Part shown: one piece after another, positions 8,146 to 34,162 of the stretch
Numbering within the stretch: the first letter of the stretch is position 1
How the letters are laid out: the number at the start of each line of letters is the position of its first letter
Assembly: GCA_965213705.1 (NCBI GenBank)
Contig: OZ243913.1
Span: forward strand, 2,176,001 to 2,240,000
Reading direction: 5' to 3'
DNA from: Trueperaceae bacterium
GTDB taxonomy: Bacteria; Deinococcota; Deinococci; Deinococcales; Trueperaceae
DNA: 64,000 nucleotides
Program-made: the position numbers and the translations under genes
The notes under the pieces: generated by a model
Told to the model about the DNA's origin: nothing
Database searches by the model: none
The model's input: the letters and a program-made list of their open reading frames with translations, nothing else

Positions 8146-8192
8146 TGGTAGCGACGGAGAGACTTGAACTCTCGACCTCACAATTATGAGTC
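8146..8192 (-). repeat. att site: duplicated 3' part of the tRNA-CAU
   Basis: TGGTAGCGACGGAGAGACTTGAACTCTCGACCTCACAATTATGAGTC matches 34086-34132 with one mismatch. Confidence 0.93.
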
Positions 8193-11321: not shown

Positions 11322-12570
11322 TCGTTCATCCCCACGCACGTGGGGAATAGGTCATCCTTTTCCTTCCTTGTCTTCGCTTTTACGGTTCATCCCCACGTGC
11401 GTGGGGAACAGCTCCTAACACAACCGACTTGTTGGCCCAAAGACGGTTCATCCCCACGTGCGTGGGGAACAGGTTCGCGTGGCAATGGCCCGAGTAGCGC
11501 CACTCGGTTCATCCCCACGTGCGTGGGGAACAGTCTTTTGGTTTGTAAGTTTGTAGTGCTGTCTACGGTTCATCCCCACGTGCGTGGGGAACAGATTACC
11601 AGCCCCAGGCTGCTAGAGTTGTCTTGCGGTTCATCCCCACGTGCGTGGGGAACAGCGTCGTCTAAATCCTTGCGCTGCTTGAAGGCGCGGTTCATCCCCA
11701 CGTGCGTGGGGAACAGACTTGTACCGATGCTCGCCAAAGCAAGCTCGGCGGTTCATCCCCACGTGCGTGGGGAACAGGTTGAAGGCGTCCATCGCGCCCG
11801 ACGTGACGGCGGTTCATCCCCACGTGCGTGGGGAACAGGTCTCGCGTGGCGGGCTGCTGGGCTTCTTAGGCGGTTCATCCCCACGTGCGTGGGGAACAGG
11901 TCCTCTACTATCGGCAGCTGCGGCAGGTTGGCGGTTCATCCCCACGTGCGTGGGGAACAGGGGTCGGGTGGGTCGGAAGGCAAGGGCAACTTCGGTTCAT
12001 CCCCACGTGCGTGGGGAACAGGGTAGCGGAAAGCGGGCCGCTGTGAATTGTTCCGGTTCATCCCCACGTGCGTGGGGAACAGCCCACCAAGAACGAACGC
12101 GGCACTCGCGTCTGCGGTTCATCCCCACGTGCGTGGGGAACAGGTTGGCGAGCACCGGGTCGACCTCGGTCGGGTCGGTTCATCCCCACGTGCGTGGGGA
12201 ACAGGCGGGTGTACTTGCTTGCGGCTGGTGCCATTACGGTTCATCCCCACGTGCGTGGGGAACAGAACAGGGTCACACCAATAACTTCGAACTCCCACGG
12301 TTCATCCCCACGTGCGTGGGGAACAGGACACGGTAGTTGCGGCGGTTCCCCAGTATCTCGGTTCATCCCCACGTGCGTGGGGAACAGTGAACGACATAAA
12401 AAACAAACTCGAACACGCTCGGTTCATCCCCACGTGCGTGGGGAACAGCTTGCTGTTGTGGTCGGCGTGGTCGTACTTCTCGGTTCATCCCCACGTGCGT
12501 GGGGAACAGGGCGTCGTTTATGCTATTTAGGACGGTTCCGACGGTTCATCCCCACGTGCGTGGGGAACAG
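11322..12570 (-). CRISPR. type I-E CRISPR array 1: 21 repeats (1 degenerate trailer), 20 spacers of 32 nt
   Basis: 29-nt repeat CTGTTCCCCACGCACGTGGGGATGAACCG (minus strand) with 61-nt period; degenerate repeat at 11322; leader on the cas2 side. Confidence 0.98.
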
Positions 12571-12632
12571 ACTAGACCAGCACGTAAAAACTAGCCTTCG
12601 GAGGCCCCTATGTCTCCTTTAGAGTTGTCATG
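12571..12632 (-). promoter_or_regulatory. leader of CRISPR array 1 (overlaps the cas2 3' end)
   Basis: shares ACTAGACC...AAAAACTA...AGTTGTCA blocks with the array 2 leader. Confidence 0.7.
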
Positions 12633-16867: not shown

Positions 16868-18378
16868 GCTGCCTCCTGTGGGGCTGGCCCAGTGGTTTCT
16901 TCGCGCAGGCGTTTGAGGTAGGTGTTGACGACCTTGCTCGCCTCAGCCCCGGCCCGCCAGGCGCGCTCGTTTTCCCCGGCGCTCTTTAAGGCAAGCTCCC
17001 AGGCTTCGCGCGTCACGGCGGTGATTTGCCCCAACCACCAACTGAACCGCTCCTCAAAGGTTTGAGTCTCGAAGCGCTCCAGCAGTTCGGGAAAGCGGGT
17101 CTCGAGCCTGCTCCAGTAGTGCATACTGGCGGGAAAGCTCGAGGCTAAGTTGCGAACATCTGCCGGGTCGGGTTTGCGTTCGCCGACGCTCAGTAACTTC
17201 TCCGCCAGGCGCTGCGTCGCGCCGTAGAGGGTGCGCCCGCCGTCGTCGGCGTACTCGAGCAGCCGCTTCATACCGGCGTAAGCTCCCGGTTGGAGGAGCA
17301 CCTGCGGTACATTGAACTGCTCGGTGCGCCACAGCACGATTTTGGCTTTGTCGTTGCTCAGGCCGGAAATTAATAGGGTGAGGGGGTCGCTGCGCTCGAG
17401 GACTGCGTACAGATTGCTCGCGTGTTTTACTGTCTGAGGCGCAAAAAACTTTTTGCCTTCAGGATCATCAGGATGAGGTATAAGTGCGTGAAAGTCCCGC
17501 CAGAATGCCTTGTATTTGTTGAAGGATACCGGCAGAAGCCCCCGCTTGTCGTCCCTGCGGTAGGCCAGCATGGGGTCGAGACTGCCTTCACTATCAAACT
17601 TGATTCCTGCCGCATAATGCAGCGCCGACACGGGCTTGCCTTCCTCGGGTTCTTGCAACTTAACGATGCGCGTCAGCCAGGTGTAACGCTCGGTGAGCCC
17701 TCTCGCGCCGCGCGGTTTGGCGGCTTTTACCGCCGCGCTCTTTGGTGTTCCTTGCTCCCAAATAGGCGCGTCATCCTCATTCGCCTCTTCAAAGTAAGGA
17801 ACGAGGTTGAGAACCAGTGTCTCGAACAGATTGCGACCTTGCGGCAGCACGAACGCCGCGCCGCCTGCCGGGCTGGGGCTGTAGCCCGCGCCCTCGGGGA
17901 TGGCGGTCATCTGCCGGGTCACGAGCAGTTGCGCGATTTCGGCGTGCGTCAACTCCGGCGGGTCGGCCTCCGCGGTGTGGTCGAAGAGGAGTTTGTTCGT
18001 GCCGCTGGCGAGTTCGGCTGCGAGCCGGGCGACCCCAGACACCTTATCTTCCGAGTCTGGCACCTGATAGAAGGGCCTTTCAGGGTGGAACAGGTCGAAG
18101 CGGTCTTGCCAGTGCTTGAGATAAGCGCCGACGCGCTCCGCCGGGAACCGACCCTGTTCGAACAACTCGACCCCTTCGTCGGTAGTGCGTGGCCCGTCCA
18201 GCGCCCGGTACAGCACAGCTAATAAAAAGCGGTGCAGCGCCGGGAGTACGGCGGGGGAGGAGTGGACTAGCCGCGCGTAGCGGTGGGCGTTTAACAAAAC
18301 CCCCTTTAGCGAGTCCTGGCCTAGCGAGCCGTCTGAGTTTTCGACCGGCAGCCAAGGTTCATGGACGAGGTTAAACAT
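16864..18378 (-). CDS. cas8e: Cas8e (Cse1/CasA)
   Basis: FNLVHEPWLPV, RFDLFHPERPFYQ, G.NLFETLVLN, AFWRDF; AAGGAGG RBS. Confidence 0.94.
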   Translation of the reverse strand: MFNLVHEPWLPVENSDGSLGQDSLKGVLLNAHRYARLVHSSPAVLPALHRFLLAVLYRALDGPRTTDEGVELFEQGRFPAERVGAYLKHWQDRFDLFHPERPFYQVPDSEDKVSGVARLAAELASGTNKLLFDHTAEADPPELTHAEIAQLLVTRQMTAIPEGAGYSPSPAGGAAFVLPQGRNLFETLVLNLVPYFEEANEDDAPIWEQGTPKSAAVKAAKPRGARGLTERYTWLTRIVKLQEPEEGKPVSALHYAAGIKFDSEGSLDPMLAYRRDDKRGLLPVSFNKYKAFWRDFHALIPHPDDPEGKKFFAPQTVKHASNLYAVLERSDPLTLLISGLSNDKAKIVLWRTEQFNVPQVLLQPGAYAGMKRLLEYADDGGRTLYGATQRLAEKLLSVGERKPDPADVRNLASSFPASMHYWSRLETRFPELLERFETQTFEERFSWWLGQITAVTREAWELALKSAGENERAWRAGAEASKVVNTYLKRLREETTGPAPQEAA

Positions 18379-18413
18379 TTCGGCCTCCTTTCAAAAGTAG
18401 TGTAAGAGGGGGG

Positions 18414-18432
18414 TGCGTCATGTAGTGACGTC
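18414..18432. promoter_or_regulatory. palindromic operator-like site at the cas8e promoter
   Basis: GCGTCA-N5-TGACGT just upstream of a minus-strand TACACT -10 box (18399-18404). Confidence 0.5.
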
Positions 18433-18435
18433 GCC

Positions 18436-18470
18436 AAAATAAAGAAGTGAGGCGCGGGATGCGCCTCACT
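18436..18470 (-). terminator. rho-independent terminator
   Basis: minus strand AGTGAGGCGC-ATCCC-GCGCCTCACT followed by TCTTTATTTT. Confidence 0.8.
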
Positions 18471-18474
18471 ACGG

Positions 18475-18657
18475 CTAACGGTCTACGTCATTATCGAACG
18501 AGCTTGTCAGCATCAACTTTTGCCACTCTCCGTGTCGAAGGTTCAAGGCCGACTGAAAGTGGGGCCAGAACTTCCATAGCACGGGGCGGTCTCGCTCATC
18601 AACCTGGTATAGGCTGTCTCTAAAGGCTTGATAGGTTGCGTCATCTATGTCAAGCAG
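18475..18657 (-). CDS. candidate 60-aa small protein (CTG start); possible Cascade-repressed toxin
   Basis: open frame LLDIDDATYQAFRDSLYQVDERDRPVLWKFWPHF... ending just before the terminator; GAGGA 9 nt upstream of CTG, inside a hairpin; not in the ORF track. Confidence 0.4.
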   Translation of the reverse strand: MLDIDDATYQAFRDSLYQVDERDRPVLWKFWPHFQSALNLRHGEWQKLMLTSSFDNDVDR

Positions 18658-18826
18658 AGCACCACATCCTCACTTTGGTGAGAGGATGCCCTTCACGCTT
18701 GACCCCCACGTGACCAAGATTTAGAGCGGGGGTGGTAGATTAAGGTGAAGGACATATTCCTTCGGTGAAGAGCGAGATGACTATTGGAGTAGGAGTCTCG
18801 CTCTTCTCGTTTGCGGTCACGAGCTT

Positions 18827-18855
18827 ACAGTAGCTCGAGTTCTTTCGAAAGTCAA
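18827..18855 (-). promoter_or_regulatory. sigma70-type promoter
   Basis: minus strand TTGACT-17 nt-TACTGT. Confidence 0.7.
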
Positions 18856-18860
18856 TGATA

Positions 18861-18888
18861 TTTATCCTCTTGCAGAGGAGTTGTACTT
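18861..18888 (-). promoter_or_regulatory. AAG-PAM target site of the mini-array spacer
   Basis: AAG-TACAACTCCTCTGCAAGAGGATAAA versus spacer TACAAGTCCTTTGCATAAGGTAAAA (19/25 identical). Confidence 0.75.
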
Positions 18889-18908
18889 AACTTCATCAGG
18901 TGACGTCA

Positions 18909-18991
18909 AATATAAACCCCACATTAGTGGGGAAGTTTTTTACCTTATGCAAAGGACTTGTATGGTTCATCCCAACGTTGTCGGGAAAATA
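18909..18991 (-). ncRNA. crRNA-like regulatory RNA (creA/creR-like): degenerate repeat, 25-nt spacer, degenerate repeat
   Basis: minus strand TATTTTCCCGACAACGTTGGG|ATGAACCA, spacer, AACTTCCCCACTAATGTGGGG; hairpins retained (one G-U pair) and handle 7/8 identical to ATGAACCG. Confidence 0.75.
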
Positions 18992-19051
18992 CTTCATTAT
19001 CTATTCTACCCATAACCGTTGTACCTACGTGGTGCAGGACTATCTTTTGGG

Positions 19052-19450
19052 CTACCCTGTTACTCCCTCTGCTTTTTCATCGGGCTTTATGCTGAGCGGT
19101 TTTGGCGCGGTAGCTTCAAGCATTGGTACAAACAGCGTAGCGACCTCATCACGGGTCTCGGCATCTTGCAAGGTGATGTCAAGACGGCACCCTACCGCGT
19201 GGGCGTAGCGGCTGAGCACCTCGAGCGCTAATGCCGTACCCTCGACACTTTCAATCTGCGATACGCGTGGACGCGTCACGCCCATGCGCTCGGCAACCTC
19301 ACGCTGGCTCAAACCCTTAGCCTCACGCATAGCGCGCAGCGCCGCTCCAATCTCTTCGTTAGCGACCTCACGGTACAGAGCAGCGTAACCGGGGTCTTGC
19401 AAAAACTCTTTGCTTAGGTCGCTCGCTCGTTTCAAGGGACGTTTTGGCAT
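19052..19450 (-). CDS. XRE/HigA-type HTH antitoxin
   Basis: LRAMREAKGLSQREVAERMGVTRPRVSQIES cro/C1 HTH; lies downstream of a RelE-like toxin gene. Confidence 0.85.
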   Translation of the reverse strand: MPKRPLKRASDLSKEFLQDPGYAALYREVANEEIGAALRAMREAKGLSQREVAERMGVTRPRVSQIESVEGTALALEVLSRYAHAVGCRLDITLQDAETRDEVATLFVPMLEATAPKPLSIKPDEKAEGVTG

Positions 19451-19454
19451 GGCG

Positions 19455-19814
19455 TTACTCCTTGTTATATTCCTCGTAAGCTGCCAAAGCTTTCCTAATA
19501 AGCTTACGGTCAGCTTGGTTCTGCTGCTTCACCTCTCCCGCGGCGGCGATGAATATATTTTTGTCCTGTTGCCAGTAATAAATGCGTACGGCGTTACGTC
19601 CGGTTTTGCCGCGCAGTTCGTAAATCGGCCCATCTATATGACTGACGTAGGGAAACGACAGTGTTTTACCTTTGTCCTCGAGCAGCGCGATGAGCCAATC
19701 GACTTTCGCAGAAGCTTTAGGATTGGAGCGTCTAAGCACCTTGCGCCACTCCCGGAACTCGGAGTAACCGTTTTCGTCCTCGTACTCATAAACAATGTAC
19801 GGTGTAGAACTCAC
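19455..19814 (-). CDS. RelE/HigB (Gp49-like) toxin
   Basis: FPYVSHIDGPIYELR...VRIYY pattern; toxin-first gene order. Confidence 0.85.
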   Translation of the reverse strand: MSSTPYIVYEYEDENGYSEFREWRKVLRRSNPKASAKVDWLIALLEDKGKTLSFPYVSHIDGPIYELRGKTGRNAVRIYYWQQDKNIFIAAAGEVKQQNQADRKLIRKALAAYEEYNKE

Positions 19815-19915: not shown

Positions 19916-22900
19916 CTACTCATACACAATTCCCAACGCATCGTCATAGCGAACAGTCAATTTCCCAACCACCGCCACCCCCCCCTCAAAAATGAGCGGG
20001 AAACAGTAGCGCAGCAGCGGCTGCTTCTGCCAAGCGGGTACTGGATGTTTAACAAGCTCGAACACAAGCCCTTTACGGCTCAGCTTGAGGTGTTGCAGAT
20101 AGAGGGTTCTCGCCGCTTGCCATGAGGGTTCCTTGTTCAACACGATTTCGGTTTCGTAGGAGGGCTCGAGGTAAAGCTTGTCATCCTTTTTGTGTAAGGG
20201 GATGACCGTGACGCTGGGATCGCCTAAACGGGTCATGGGCCGGTAATGTTCATGAATGCTGGGGTCTTCGTCGTCCTCCGCTAAAATATCTTTTGCGACA
20301 CCGTCGATACCTGCATAATCTTTGGGCAACGCTACTACAGTCTTATTATCGTGTGCCTTTCGTTTGTGAAGTTGCACCACCTCTTCTTGATTGGCGCGGC
20401 TTTGCTCAACCACCTCACGGGCAAAACCCGGCAGCGCCGTCACATCGGGCTCGCCGTATACGGCTTTGACAAGCGGCTCAAAGTCTTCAGGTAACGCAAT
20501 AACTTCCTTATCAGCCAAGGTCCACCACGTCATGTACAGAGTGAACGCTTCGTAAATTCGGTCGAAATATTCGCCGCTTTCGCCGCTGATGTCCGGGAGC
20601 GTCTCGGCGTCGGTCAGCCCTGCCACGTAGAGGACGGGCGACGCGTGGGTGGCGGAACGTTCGCGCTCGTGGCGGTGCATCCGTCCGGCACGCTGCAAGA
20701 GTAGATCGACAGGTGCTAAGTCACTCACCATCACGTCGAAGTCCAAGTCCAGGCTCTGCTCGACCACCTGCGTGGCGATGAGAATAGCTTTGGCTGGGCG
20801 CTCCCCATTCTTGCCGAACTTCTCCAGCACCGCTTGTTCTCGCTTTTGCCGTTCCGCCGCAGGATAACGAGCGTGAAACAAATAAACCTCGGTGTCGTCA
20901 GGCAAACGCTTTCCGGTCTCGAGACTTTCACCTTCTCCCAACAAGCTGTAAAGAGCCTGTGCCCGCTGCACTGTGTTTAGAATAGCCACCGCACAACCGC
21001 CGTCCGTTACTAAATTTGTGAGGAGGTTTGCGACTGTCTCGAGTCCCAAGCTGACCCTTTTCAAATCTATAGGCTTCTGCTCTCTCACCGAGAACGAATA
21101 CTCCTTGGTCTTTCCGCCCAGCACCTGCGTGATGCGCGGGTAGGAGACAGACTCCTCGGCCTCGCCACCCCCAAAAGCCTTGACTAAATCTAAACGCTTG
21201 GCGGCGGGCAACGTCGCGCTCATGATGATGACCGACGAGCCGAGCGCGTGCAGCCAGCGCACGAGGCGCTCGATGAGTTTGCTCGTGTAAAGCTCGTAGG
21301 CGTGAACTTCGTCTAAAACAACCGTGCGGTTGCCCAACCCCCACAGGCGGACAAACTGGTGCTTGATGTTGAGAACGCTCAAAAGCGCCTGGTCGACCGT
21401 GCCCACCCCGTTTTCAGACAGCAGCGCTCGCTTTTTACTTGTGAACCAGGTTCTGGCCCACACCTCGCCCTCTTTGTTGTCCACCCCATCTACATCCTTA
21501 ACTTGGATGGTGGCGTAAGCGTCGTTGAGCAGGCTTGCGCCGTGCAAAAGCTGCAAGTCGGGTGGCGCGTCGCGCTCGAAGGTGCCGAGCAGGTCTTTGG
21601 TGCGCTCGAACATGGCATTACCCGTTGCTTGTGTGGGCAGCGCCACGTATAAGCCTCGGTGTCCCAACTGCCGCTGTAAAGTGACGTGAGCGTAGAAGGC
21701 AGCCTCCGTTTTACCTTCACCCATCGGTGCTTCGATGATGATGAGGGAGGGTTTATGAGTTTTCTCAACAAGGTCGACGATGTGCGCCTGAAGACCGTTG
21801 GGCTCAAAAGAAAAAATGGTGTTGAAGGCTCGCGGTTCCGCCGCTAAAGGCTCACGGCGCTCCCAGCCTATCTTGTCTAGGGCCTTACGCGCTTTTAGCA
21901 GTGAATCGAGAAAGTGTTCTCGCAGATTTATTACTTTTCGGTCGGTAGGAAAAAAGTCGACCGTTGAGCCAATCCAATCGGCGAAGCTGGTCAAGCCTGC
22001 CAACCTGATAAAGCCTTGCCCTGTGAGTGCGGTGGTGGTCGGCGGCGAGATTTGAACGACTTCTACTGCTTTCAGGAACTCAGTTAGAACCTCCTGCCGG
22101 GTCTCTTGCCAAGCGTCGTCGCCCATATCTTGCTTTGGAATTACGTTGTCTGACAAGTCACCCTTTGCAGTTCGCAGGCCGTGATGTGCGCCTACGGCGT
22201 CGGCAACTTGAGCGACGAGATTCCTGCCTAAGCCGTAGGTTTTAAGTTCGGTCTGCAAGATTTTCTGTGAGAGTTTTCCGTGTGCAGTGCCCTTGTCACC
22301 CTTACTAAAAGTAAGCCCCGCCGCCTCGACCACCAGTCGTCCTGGTTCCCATTGCCGCTGGAAGGCCGGGGTCGCCTTGCCGATGTCGTGCAAACCGGTG
22401 AGCGCGGCTATCCACCGTTTAGCGTCGCCGGGCTCGAGCCCCAAATCCTCCGCGTAAAGCCGCAAAGTCTGCGGGGGTTCGCGCTCGAGCAACACTTGCG
22501 CCACCGCCGCCACATCCAACAGATGTCCCACGAGGCTGTAGCCCTGCTCGTCTTCGCCACTTTTGGCCCACAGGGCCGCCGCCTTTGCTGAAAGATTGGT
22601 CATGGGTTCAGTGTGTCCTTTTGGTGCGTCATTTACTGACGCGAGCCTCGTTTTTAGGTGGGGATGCTGTAAGGCGACGGCGCTGGCTTCACTCAACCAG
22701 CGTTCGCGCAAAGCTTTGGGCGCTAGAACGTCAACTCGTGGCCCCCAGCTTTGCACCCAAGGGAGAATTTCTCTTGGAAAGCCTGCGTTGTCGGTGCCCA
22801 CCTTGATTTCGACCTCGAGCGAGCCGTCCGCGAGTTCTTCTTTTAAAACCAAGTTGGGATAACCGCCTTCTCTAATACGCGCAGCAGCCTCTGGCTTGAA

Positions 22901-23617
22901 GCGCAGATACACCGTAGCAACCTCAGCTTCTTGCCCGCCCATCACGCCCCAGGCAGCGCTCAGATATTCACTCGGCACAAAGGTTTCAGGAACAATGTAG
23001 CTGGTTTCCAAAATCCGAACATCGCTCATCCGCGAGAGCTTGAAGGTGAGGACTCGGTCGAAGCTACATTCTTTGCCGATGGCGTACAAAGCCAAGTTGT
23101 CGCGACTGACCTCGATCAAATAAGTTTCCAGCTCGCGCCACTCTGCACGGTTGGGCTTGTCAGCCGTAGTGTATTTGAAACGCAGAACTCTGCTCTCAAA
23201 CCAAGCCCGCGCCACAAACTCCAAGGCTCGGTCGTCGCTGGAACGCACTTTCAGGTCTTGCGCACTTGCCGCCGCGATTCCCTTGGCAGGTTCGGGTAGC
23301 AGTGACGCCAGCTTCTCCAACGCCGAGCGGTAGTAAAGGTTTCGAGTGGGTGAGTGGTGATACAAAAGCCTTACCGCCGCGTGGACTGCAAGCCCTTCGA
23401 CAGCGTTGAGCGACGAACCCGTCGGCGTGAGACGGTGGCGGAAATCCTCTGAGGTTTCGATAGCACAACCGCTCTCACGCAGCGTCTGAATGTCGCGCTG
23501 GATGGTTCTGACCGGCACGCCGTAGCGCTGGGCAAGTTCCTTGATGGTGTACGGCTTTAGCCGCAACAGTTCAGGCAACTCCGCCAAGCGCCGAGCTTTA
23601 CTCTGCGTCCGCGTCAC
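19916..23617 (-). CDS. cas3: HTH-WYL-Cas3 fusion (HD nuclease plus SF2 helicase)
   Basis: N-terminal HTH (KELAQRYGVPVRTIQRDI) and WYL-type region (LYAIG...TFKLSRM...SAAWG; WVQSWGPRVDVLAP); then LWAKS, HLLDV, HDIGK, HHG, ADWIGS, APMGEGKT, DEVH, SAT, QVVEQSLDLDFD, QRAGRMHRH. Confidence 0.93.
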   Translation of the reverse strand: MTRTQSKARRLAELPELLRLKPYTIKELAQRYGVPVRTIQRDIQTLRESGCAIETSEDFRHRLTPTGSSLNAVEGLAVHAAVRLLYHHSPTRNLYYRSALEKLASLLPEPAKGIAAASAQDLKVRSSDDRALEFVARAWFESRVLRFKYTTADKPNRAEWRELETYLIEVSRDNLALYAIGKECSFDRVLTFKLSRMSDVRILETSYIVPETFVPSEYLSAAWGVMGGQEAEVATVYLRFKPEAAARIREGGYPNLVLKEELADGSLEVEIKVGTDNAGFPREILPWVQSWGPRVDVLAPKALRERWLSEASAVALQHPHLKTRLASVNDAPKGHTEPMTNLSAKAAALWAKSGEDEQGYSLVGHLLDVAAVAQVLLEREPPQTLRLYAEDLGLEPGDAKRWIAALTGLHDIGKATPAFQRQWEPGRLVVEAAGLTFSKGDKGTAHGKLSQKILQTELKTYGLGRNLVAQVADAVGAHHGLRTAKGDLSDNVIPKQDMGDDAWQETRQEVLTEFLKAVEVVQISPPTTTALTGQGFIRLAGLTSFADWIGSTVDFFPTDRKVINLREHFLDSLLKARKALDKIGWERREPLAAEPRAFNTIFSFEPNGLQAHIVDLVEKTHKPSLIIIEAPMGEGKTEAAFYAHVTLQRQLGHRGLYVALPTQATGNAMFERTKDLLGTFERDAPPDLQLLHGASLLNDAYATIQVKDVDGVDNKEGEVWARTWFTSKKRALLSENGVGTVDQALLSVLNIKHQFVRLWGLGNRTVVLDEVHAYELYTSKLIERLVRWLHALGSSVIIMSATLPAAKRLDLVKAFGGGEAEESVSYPRITQVLGGKTKEYSFSVREQKPIDLKRVSLGLETVANLLTNLVTDGGCAVAILNTVQRAQALYSLLGEGESLETGKRLPDDTEVYLFHARYPAAERQKREQAVLEKFGKNGERPAKAILIATQVVEQSLDLDFDVMVSDLAPVDLLLQRAGRMHRHERERSATHASPVLYVAGLTDAETLPDISGESGEYFDRIYEAFTLYMTWWTLADKEVIALPEDFEPLVKAVYGEPDVTALPGFAREVVEQSRANQEEVVQLHKRKAHDNKTVVALPKDYAGIDGVAKDILAEDDEDPSIHEHYRPMTRLGDPSVTVIPLHKKDDKLYLEPSYETEIVLNKEPSWQAARTLYLQHLKLSRKGLVFELVKHPVPAWQKQPLLRYCFPLIFEGGVAVVGKLTVRYDDALGIVYE

Positions 23618-24038
23618 CCACCCTCTTTTCTCCCCCCTTTACCTCCCACAGCACCGTGACCCCTGCAAACTTCTCAAATTCCGAGTCACGGCTGACGAGC
23701 GGTAAGTCCTCGACCAGCGCCTGCGCCGCCAAAGCTCGGTCAAAGGGGTCGCTGTGCTCGTGGGCCAACTCTCCTTCTTTCAGCGCGTGAACGCTGCTGA
23801 AAGGCAAGTCCGTAAAGCTGTACTGCGCCAGGCGACGATGGTAGTTGTGCCACAAGGATTCAGCTTGGGGCAGTTTGCCAATCCGCACCTTGATAGATAG
23901 CTCCCAAGCGGTAATAGCTGAGGTGTACACTTGTCGGTCACGTTCACGGAGCAAGGCTAGAATGCTCTCCGGCAACATTTCAGGGCTTACGCTGTACCAC
24001 AGCAGCACGTGGGTGTCGAGCAAAACCCCTTTACTCAT
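23598..24038 (-). CDS. VapC PIN-domain toxin
   Basis: LLDTHVLLW, SAITAWE, HSDPFDR, SRD. Confidence 0.92.
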   Translation of the reverse strand: MSKGVLLDTHVLLWYSVSPEMLPESILALLRERDRQVYTSAITAWELSIKVRIGKLPQAESLWHNYHRRLAQYSFTDLPFSSVHALKEGELAHEHSDPFDRALAAQALVEDLPLVSRDSEFEKFAGVTVLWEVKGGEKRVGDADAE

Positions 24039-34085: not shown

Positions 34086-34162
34086 TGGTAGCGACGGAGA
34101 GACTTGAACTCTCGACCTCACGATTATGAGTCGTGCGCTCTAACCAGCTGAGCTACATCGCC
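34086..34162 (-). tRNA. tRNA with CAU anticodon (Ile2/lysidine or elongator Met)
   Basis: GGCGATGTAGCTCAGCTGGTTAGAGCGCACGACTCATAATCGTGAGGTCGAGAGTTCAAGTCTCTCCGTCGCTACCA folds as a cloverleaf with encoded CCA. Confidence 0.95.

Follow-up and report, generated by a model that had tools for sequence, protein, structure and literature searches.

CRISPR-repressed toxins have been described for CreTA of Haloarcula and Halobacterium (type I-B), in which the toxin CreT is an RNA that needs strong initiation (PMC8501985), for CreTA of Pseudomonas (type I-F), with a CreT RNA built on proline codons (10.64898/2026.06.02.729485), and for CrePA of Acinetobacter baylyi ADP1 (type I-F), in which the toxin CreP, a 103-aa KilAC domain of phage origin, blocks division (10.1101/2024.01.05.574328). 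Within the accessible text of this literature the proven cases belong to types I-B and I-F, one alone of them being a protein, and the creA-creP plan is described only for I-B and I-F systems; a 2025 review, in the part available, lists as an open question whether further CRISPR types also have CrePA-like systems, and with other targets (PMC12737573). In type I-E, the regulatory counterpart CreR was established in Salmonella enterica, with AAG as the PAM and with the asymmetry between psiR1 and psiR2 that is typical of CreR and CreA (10.1101/2023.03.10.532045). Control of cargo genes by mini-arrays is reported mainly for type I-D, and annotated toxin-antitoxin genes are enriched, also in type I-E (10.1101/2023.03.03.530964). 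Our literature search returned neither a Cascade-repressed small protein in type I-E nor the proteins described below (supplements and subscription papers may list such mini-arrays), and no papers on the five protein accessions; two supplementary files of PMC10120712 mention no Meiothermus, Truepera or Deinococcus, although the large tables may list mini-arrays.

Here we analyse a 64,000-nucleotide stretch of DNA from a Trueperaceae bacterium (the window; its genome is G000 below). The original prediction had named a structured short transcript (18440-18820) as a candidate effector, and the unit, which lies upstream of cas8e, indeed looks like the effector of a CreA-type guide, with mini-array, target, promoter and gene in that layout. 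The reading to which we give slightly better than even odds is that the conserved gene encodes a CreP-like guard toxin silenced by the guide, of which the local allele is attenuated.

The type I-E locus

The minus strand of the window carries a type I-E CRISPR-Cas locus (Table 1) with the one cas8e found in the whole genome. A gap of 670 nt separates the Gp49/RelE-HTH pair from cas8e, and the candidate unit is its cas8e-proximal half. Elsewhere in the phylum, the cas3-cas8e gap of locus L011 contains a mini-array-like element and different RelE/HTH-like genes. The repeat variants differ between the two arrays of the window. We also found a 47-nt direct repeat (98% identical, with a tRNA-like look) at 8146-8192 and 34086-34132; the stretch of about 26 kb between the copies takes in an ArdC-like gene and all of the CRISPR-Cas locus, and is probably an integrated element.

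The palindrome upstream of cas8e occurs twice in the window (0.13 expected) and four times in the genome. Its second copy in the window (22627-22641) lies inside the WYL-Cas3 ORF, just before an internal ATG that opens the Cas3 part, and the palindrome is also present before cas8e in L010, L016 and L019. The copy upstream of cas8e is a probable operator of a separate cas8e promoter; the fused WYL regulator probably uses the palindrome as its operator, and cas3 would have an internal start.

Table 1. Positions of the features discussed (window coordinates unless a locus is given)
Feature	Position	Strand	Remarks
CRISPR arrays	11322-12571 and from 24397 onward
cas8e	18378	-	followed by cas11, cas7, cas5, cas6e, cas1, cas2
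Palindrome CGTCA-N5-TGACG	18416-18430	.	upstream of cas8e, outside the 60-codon unit
Intrinsic terminator-like hairpin	18436-18470	-	10-bp stem and U-rich tail; z -6.68; separates the unit from cas8e
60-codon gene, candidate CreP-like toxin	18475-18657	-	CTG start
RBS hairpin	18655-18688	-	SD GAGGA 18671-18667; out-of-frame GTG 18662-18660; in-frame CTG 18657-18655
Second long stem	18684-18763	-	holds the AUG of the 20-codon upstream ORF; z -3.08
20-codon upstream ORF	18755-18693	-	translation MSFTLIYHPRSKSWSRGGQA, then stop
5' hairpin	18767-18806	-	11-bp stem 18806-18796/18777-18767, 11/11 paired; 18-nt loop with inner stem
Predicted promoter TTGACT-17-TACTGT	18827-18855	-	read by eye; presumed start near 18820
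AAG PAM (18888-18886) and protospacer	18866-18888	-	ends about 10 nt before the -35 box
psiR2, degenerate repeat	18909-18937	-	CCCCAC/GTGGGG hairpin
psiS, 25-nt guide spacer	18938-18962	-
psiR1, degenerate repeat of creA-like mini-array	18963-18991	-	ends in handle ATGAACCA
Gp49/RelE-like gene and HTH partner	19052-19814	-	between cas3 and mini-array; kept in G004
HTH-WYL-WCX regulator fused in frame to Cas3	19916-23617	-	1233 aa
PIN-domain gene	23598-24038	-	upstream of cas3
Group D pair (46-47 aa)	L054:999-1136; L092:312-452	+; -	guide-controlled slot

A degenerate mini-array and the site it matches

The mini-array has the anatomy of CreA and CreR, with two degenerate repeats of which psiR1 carries the handle and psiR2 a hairpin. 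psiR1 is identical to the array repeat at 19 of 29 positions (7 of 8 in the handle, hairpin kept) and psiR2 at 17 of 29 (15 of the first 21). About 80 nt downstream, next to the predicted promoter, lies the site that the guide matches: psiS agrees with 18885-18866, directly after AAG, at 14 of the 17 scored positions (positions 6, 12 and 18 being omitted), including 7 of 7 in the seed. Among the six seed-perfect AAG sites in the 4.25-Mb genome this one is the best (14 versus 11 for the next), and none of 20,000 dinucleotide resamples (shuffles) of the gap equalled the match, even with four PAMs allowed. Seed, subtype PAM and partial match beside a predicted promoter are the marks of a CreA or CreR target. 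None of the array spacers matched the gap (best 19 of ~32).

One of 40 relatives (G004) has the region. Its spacer differs and fits its own site at 16 of 17 positions as against 6 of 17 for the site in G000, which indicates that guide and target have changed together. Two hairpins at 18724 and 18688 resemble further degenerate repeats (17/29 and 15/29 identical); since G004 keeps no repeats there, we read them as leader stems. A second spacer past psiR2, directed at the cas8e palindrome (common GACGTCAC), was dismissed, having no AAG PAM and not being kept in G004.

A small protein gene with an altered start

The 60-codon frame, said by the original prediction to open with CTG and end just before the terminator, is present, and its pattern of substitution indicates that it is a real small protein gene under purifying selection. 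Over 59 codons, comparison with the orthologue in G004 (a 61-aa ORF with a GTG start) gave 21 synonymous and 12 non-synonymous changes, 20 of the 33 at third positions (dN/dS 0.10, binomial P 3e-7). A homologue search, proposed at the outset as a check, retrieved besides this orthologue the proteins P0003 and P0004 (60 and 61 aa), which begin MLDLED and are 78-81% identical to the G004 protein. The suggestion of an unrecognised small protein is, toxicity aside, borne out by the dN/dS ratio and the homologues.

What became of the start is of particular interest. The G004 gene has GGGAG, 4 nt and GTG, and a third variant, found on sequencing contigs, whose C-terminal letters fit P0004, has AGGAG, 4 nt and ATG, in a hairpin clearly related to that of G000 (pairing by eye). 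The G000 gene has GAGGA, 4 nt and GTG at 18662, followed by five extra bases that put the GTG out of frame, so that it opens only a 5-codon VLCLT frame; for the long frame this leaves CTG, 9 nt from the SD, as the sole start. Among the 17 aligned rows G000 alone lacks the C-terminal glycine that belongs to a G[SD]LD-type motif, and its residue 25 is proline, against alanine in three homologues. As the frame is intact and 6 of the 8 listed G000-specific sites are synonymous (hand count; 17 rows not shown), the start change is recent or the CTG is used. The CTG is no apparent assembly slip, since a contig of depth 429 (possibly the window's own source) spans 18300-19150 without a difference. Over the same interval, sequencing runs X1/X2 showed three divergent versions of the module in one sample (G000, G004-like and P0004-like), conditions under which cassettes could be exchanged; runs X3 and X4 did not cover the interval. 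We consider it reasonably likely that the G000 allele is attenuated or freshly decaying, and judging from the start region this copy probably makes little or no protein.

The damage raises the question of whether the unit in G000 now has no function, being either a dead relic or a piece left from an unrelated, longer gene. A decayed gene of about 90 codons starting at 18755 had been proposed, and of this idea the signs of decay at the start stand and the ancestor falls. The homologues are 60-61 aa and share the MLDLED start, the upstream ORFs show no evident likeness, and no longer form occurred among 449 candidates or in 1.84 billion representatives; the latter gave one full-length match and four weak multi-stretch matches (P0005-P0008). 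Two weak matches, G292 and G293 (E 0.003), fall within unrelated genes or on their opposite strand and were set aside as noise. The out-of-frame GTG, the lost glycine and the proline at position 25 fit a relic, as does a weak match of PADLOC DndF to three group-A rows (E 0.003-0.013), an identity to which the search of 1.84 billion representatives lent no support. Against it, promoter, guide match, hairpins and terminator are all intact, and we regard a functionless unit as improbable.

A model made from the 17-row alignment, some rows of which are weakly related, has a pLDDT of 82 and three helices (6-16, 21-29 and 31-57). The protein is predicted to be soluble and acidic (net charge -4), has no hydrophobic segment or transmembrane helix (maximum 19-residue hydropathy -0.16) and gave no KilAC match in Pfam, PHROGs and NCBIfam at E up to 0.1-5. 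Searches of Pfam, PHROGs, NCBIfam and PDB sequences returned nothing of note, the ESM Atlas no usable match for P0004 or P0009, and fold searches generic helices only (best Foldseek E 2.2; best VIA Z 6.0, rmsd 4.4 over 60); no significant match in these library and fold searches pointed to a toxin. Relatives of the group to which the G000 protein belongs (group A, see below) were absent from the metagenome contigs, viral contigs and phage records searched, relatives of group B from the viral contigs, and P0009 from plasmids.

ORFs behind putative guides upstream of cas8e in the phylum

A cas8e gene was found in 106 of the 364 genomes of the phylum, and 107 upstream regions (12 + 95) were examined, split or contig-edge matches being partly omitted and four regions being shortened. 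A mini-array with a PAM-flanked target was present in 25 of the 107, in 21 by a handle-spacer-PAM-target scan and in 4 by a relaxed scan. The diagonal of the 16-locus guide-target matrix (made from 16 of the 21 loci) is partly circular, the targets having been chosen for matching. In 20 of the 25 loci an ORF of 46-89 codons lies in the interval from the target to cas8e; of the others, L033 retains a stub of 26 codons, L015 has an open frame whose start is unclear, and no such ORF is present in L049, L070 and L084. By eye, no family-like ORF was seen among the SD-led ORFs listed for the other 82 regions.

The ORFs in this slot fall into groups A (that of G000), B (MLYG-L-ADD...), C (RRA...F...EL-LE-AE), D (two members) and E (...ERDR...GSLD). 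Groups B and C are homologous (hhalign 84%), and no profile link was found between groups D and A. The tie between group A and the wider family is much looser (hhalign probability ~2%): five out-of-sample profiles ranked the G000 ORF 20th, 373rd, 570th, 1241st and 3936th of ~46,900 segments (best E 37), and only that of group E ranked group A high, with G004 1st, P0003 7th, G000 20th and P0004 51st (best E 0.31). A frameshifted ORF in G019, which ranked 1st of 20,297 with the group-A profile (14.8 versus 8.4 bits), 2nd with that of group B and 13th with that of group C, bridges group A and groups B/C. A joint (A4) profile found 22 proteins, six of which have a name in their source, in each case hypothetical, one being also called HEPN in UniRef. 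In a scan with at most 17 candidates scored per genome, this profile found matches in 16 of the 364 genomes, only in the cas3-cas8e slot; 15 of these were its own rows and G019 was out of sample. In metagenomes all four out-of-sample matches of the group-B alignment lie just before cas8e, three with cas3 and a mini-array, and in the fourth (L133) other sequence replaces the guide, the promoter and the first 12 codons together.

We observed several lesions of the gene with the guide intact, namely the frameshift in G019, the stop at codon 26 in L033, the missing clear start in L015 and the altered start in G000, which fits a costly gene. The association with the cas3-cas8e gap of type I-E loci could also mean that the guide represses the promoter but that the protein serves the Cas system without being toxic, as an accessory or a feedback regulator; its gene might, for instance, once have headed a cas operon under CreR control and later have been insulated by a terminator in the G000 lineage. 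Restriction to this gap, the established type I-E CreR (10.1101/2023.03.10.532045) and the three of 25 mini-array loci without such an ORF agree with this. In groups B and E, moreover, the ORF ends ~10-50 nt before cas8e without a clear terminator and looks co-transcribed with it, so that the guide may there mainly regulate the cas operon. In G000 and G004, however, a strong terminator and a separate palindrome-bearing region precede cas8e, 82 of the 107 loci do without the ORF, and the presence of at least four dissimilar protein groups in the slot fits swappable cargo better than a single subunit. The dS of the ORF between G000 and G004 (0.95) also exceeds that of three flanking genes (0.14, 0.24 and 0.34), and the terminator and the region upstream of cas8e are almost identical between the two genomes, which suggests a cassette of guide, promoter, leader and gene that moves or evolves as one. 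An accessory role seems to us rather unlikely.

Predicted promoter, leader and terminator

The -35 box lies 30 nt after the start of the protospacer. The promoter agrees with the consensus at 8 of 12 positions, which is below the threshold of the promoter scan and explains its absence from the scan listing; G004 has TTGACT-18-TATAGT at the equal place and the third variant has TATACT. The RNA predicted from this promoter and the terminator (~385 nt; the transcript itself is a prediction from sequence) folds better than each of 100 shuffles (z -4.64), owing to the leader (alone z -5.31) rather than to the ORF (alone z -1.66); the leader of G004 has z -2.13. Terminator stem and tail are kept in G004.

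The 11-bp stem, the 20-codon ORF and the placement of GAGGA inside a hairpin were all found as the original prediction had them. The 5' hairpin (z -3.65 for 18760-18820) is kept at 31 of 34 nt in the third variant, the next 110 nt of which fail to align at 80%, and is rebuilt with other letters in G004, where CCTAC and AATAGTCA are kept. The stem holding the upstream AUG has its equivalent in an ATGYCCY/AGGGCRT stem in G004, together with a 21-codon ORF of unrelated sequence, so that the position of the upstream ORF is conserved and its sequence is not. The leaders of G000 and G004, mostly different in letters, share one fold, consisting of the 5' hairpin, the upstream-AUG stem and an SD-containing stem.

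The original prediction took occlusion of the RBS as typical of toxin mRNAs. GAGGA forms part of the 3' arm of the 18688-18665 hairpin, the local fold pairs both SD and CTG, and occlusion is predicted in all three readable group-A leaders; the opening energy of the RBS is 15.0 kcal/mol in G000, compared to 9.1 for cas8e, and is the highest of 18 small ORFs. The 61-nt RBS piece alone, on the other hand, shows no excess stability (z -1.28; 24 of 200 shuffles did as well), and in the 17 loci where ORF and cas8e could be compared the median opening energies were equal (10.0 versus 10.5, P 0.70). Occlusion was dropped as a family-wide sign of a toxin and is by itself no evidence of toxicity, being no stronger than at cas8e in these loci; nor are weak starts specific to toxins, since most of the surveyed cas8e genes also use TTG starts.

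Leader structure of this extent raises the possibility that the RNA or its leader is the effector, as a new CreT-like RNA toxin, and that the protein is secondary. The fold of the leader and the persistence of the 5' hairpin in all three variants would agree with this, as would the strong guide match in G000 despite the damaged start. In group B, too, the 5' hairpin covaries, with two-sided changes in 4 of 13 pairs around an invariant loop (6 sequences). The RNA toxin of CreT type that had been suggested nevertheless finds no support here. In the codon lists of the 20-codon ORF in G000 and the 21-codon ORF in G004 neither rare nor proline codons stand in tandem, the predicted fold pairs the upstream AUG where CreT needs strong initiation (PMC8501985), and the GTG frame reads VLCLT. 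The ORF is under protein-level selection, the predicted RNA has no Rfam match at E up to 5, and no single RNA motif spans the family: over 22 loci the group-B hairpin model matches L021, L076 and, weakly, L103, and misses the hairpins of G000 and G004, so that one motif for all 5' hairpins was rejected. We judge an RNA effector improbable.

Two loci, L049 and L070, retain the guide, a promoter-like target site and a hairpin-rich stretch that is apparently common to both, without an ORF. This counts in favour of an RNA effector, and the stretch is a candidate non-coding cargo RNA. An invariant CGCCGCCAAG loop occurs in the covarying 5' hairpin of the leaders of L014, L021, L076, L077, L080, L132, L134 and L135, and by eye NCCA is present in the first hairpin loop of several other loci and of G000.

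Proposed function of the unit

Returning to the guard toxin as the preferred reading, Cas6e would cut psiR1 and psiR2 to release a guide with an 8-nt handle and the 25-nt spacer, as the repeat anatomy suggests. By analogy with CreA and CreR, Cascade would very probably bind the AAG-flanked site by the -35 box via the partial match and block RNA polymerase there without cleaving the DNA. Loss or titration of Cascade, or its inhibition by an anti-CRISPR, would then allow the ~385-nt RNA to be transcribed, with the terminator keeping the output of the unit apart from cas8e. The leader may damp leakage, as the GGGCAUCC arm is common to the second stem and the RBS hairpin, which are predicted to form as alternatives, and the 20-codon ORF might act as a coupling leader. 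As the terminator makes the gene the apparent sole output in G000 and G004, an antitoxin guide fits better than CreR. From the layout shared with known guards we lean, by a little, towards a growth-arresting guard toxin as the product. Because it is soluble and helical and has no conserved catalytic set, the protein would most likely bind an essential host protein, and be neither a pore nor an enzyme.

With somewhat less than even confidence we extend this to the phylum, where small helical protein toxins repressed by Cascade may guard the type I-E systems of Deinococcus-Thermus, as a CreP-type plan outside type I-F with swapped guide-promoter-leader-gene cassettes, a structural lock in the leader and a new target. 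The survey yields about 20 type I-E candidates, spread over four or five protein groups; homologues of some are named hypothetical proteins in Thermus, Meiothermus and Deinococcus, genera with cultured strains. Type I-E mini-arrays filed as CreR may hide a missed cargo gene of 50-65 codons, and the G000 allele would exemplify a guard that loses its start while the guide persists.

Comparison with known systems

Type I toxin-antitoxin mRNAs such as hok/mok have an occluded RBS, an upstream ORF that ends by the RBS hairpin and about 60 codons, and are controlled by an antisense RNA. The G000 unit resembles these in its predicted RBS occlusion, its upstream ORF ending beside the RBS hairpin and its length of about 60 codons, but its protein has no membrane helix and the predicted control is a CRISPR guide at the promoter instead of an antisense RNA.

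With CreR of Salmonella the unit shares subtype, place, AAG PAM and the asymmetry of psiR1 and psiR2 (10.1101/2023.03.10.532045; type I-E mini-arrays in 10.1101/2023.03.03.530964). The target of CreR, in the available text, is the cas8/casA promoter, with no coupled toxin described, whereas the G000 target lies ~500 nt upstream of cas8e and precedes a cargo gene with a predicted terminator of its own. In G000 and G004 alike, target and cas8e are separated by a conserved gene and a terminator-like hairpin, which does not suit a standalone CreR.

With CreTA it has in common the plan of a degenerate mini-CRISPR antitoxin and, in the predicted repressed RNA, an SD, a short ORF and hairpins; in Pseudomonas the -35 box of CreT is also located ~30 bp downstream of the target (10.64898/2026.06.02.729485). 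The 4-6 codon mini-ORF of tandem rare or proline codons given for CreT in the accessible text is absent, and the conserved unit is the 60-codon gene.

CrePA has the same two-repeat creA in the cas3-cas8 gap, the same partial PAM-flanked match near a promoter and a small protein ORF downstream (10.1101/2024.01.05.574328). A protein-coding gene behind the creA target is present here too, with its start altered in G000. Unlike CrePA, as far as it is described in the available text, the G000 unit is of type I-E, encodes a 60-aa helical protein without KilAC and has a structured leader of ~160 nt; CreP is phage-derived, whereas viral contigs and phage records held no relative of the G000 protein. 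Without KilAC the protein is not CreP proper, and by its layout the G000 unit appears to be like CrePA.
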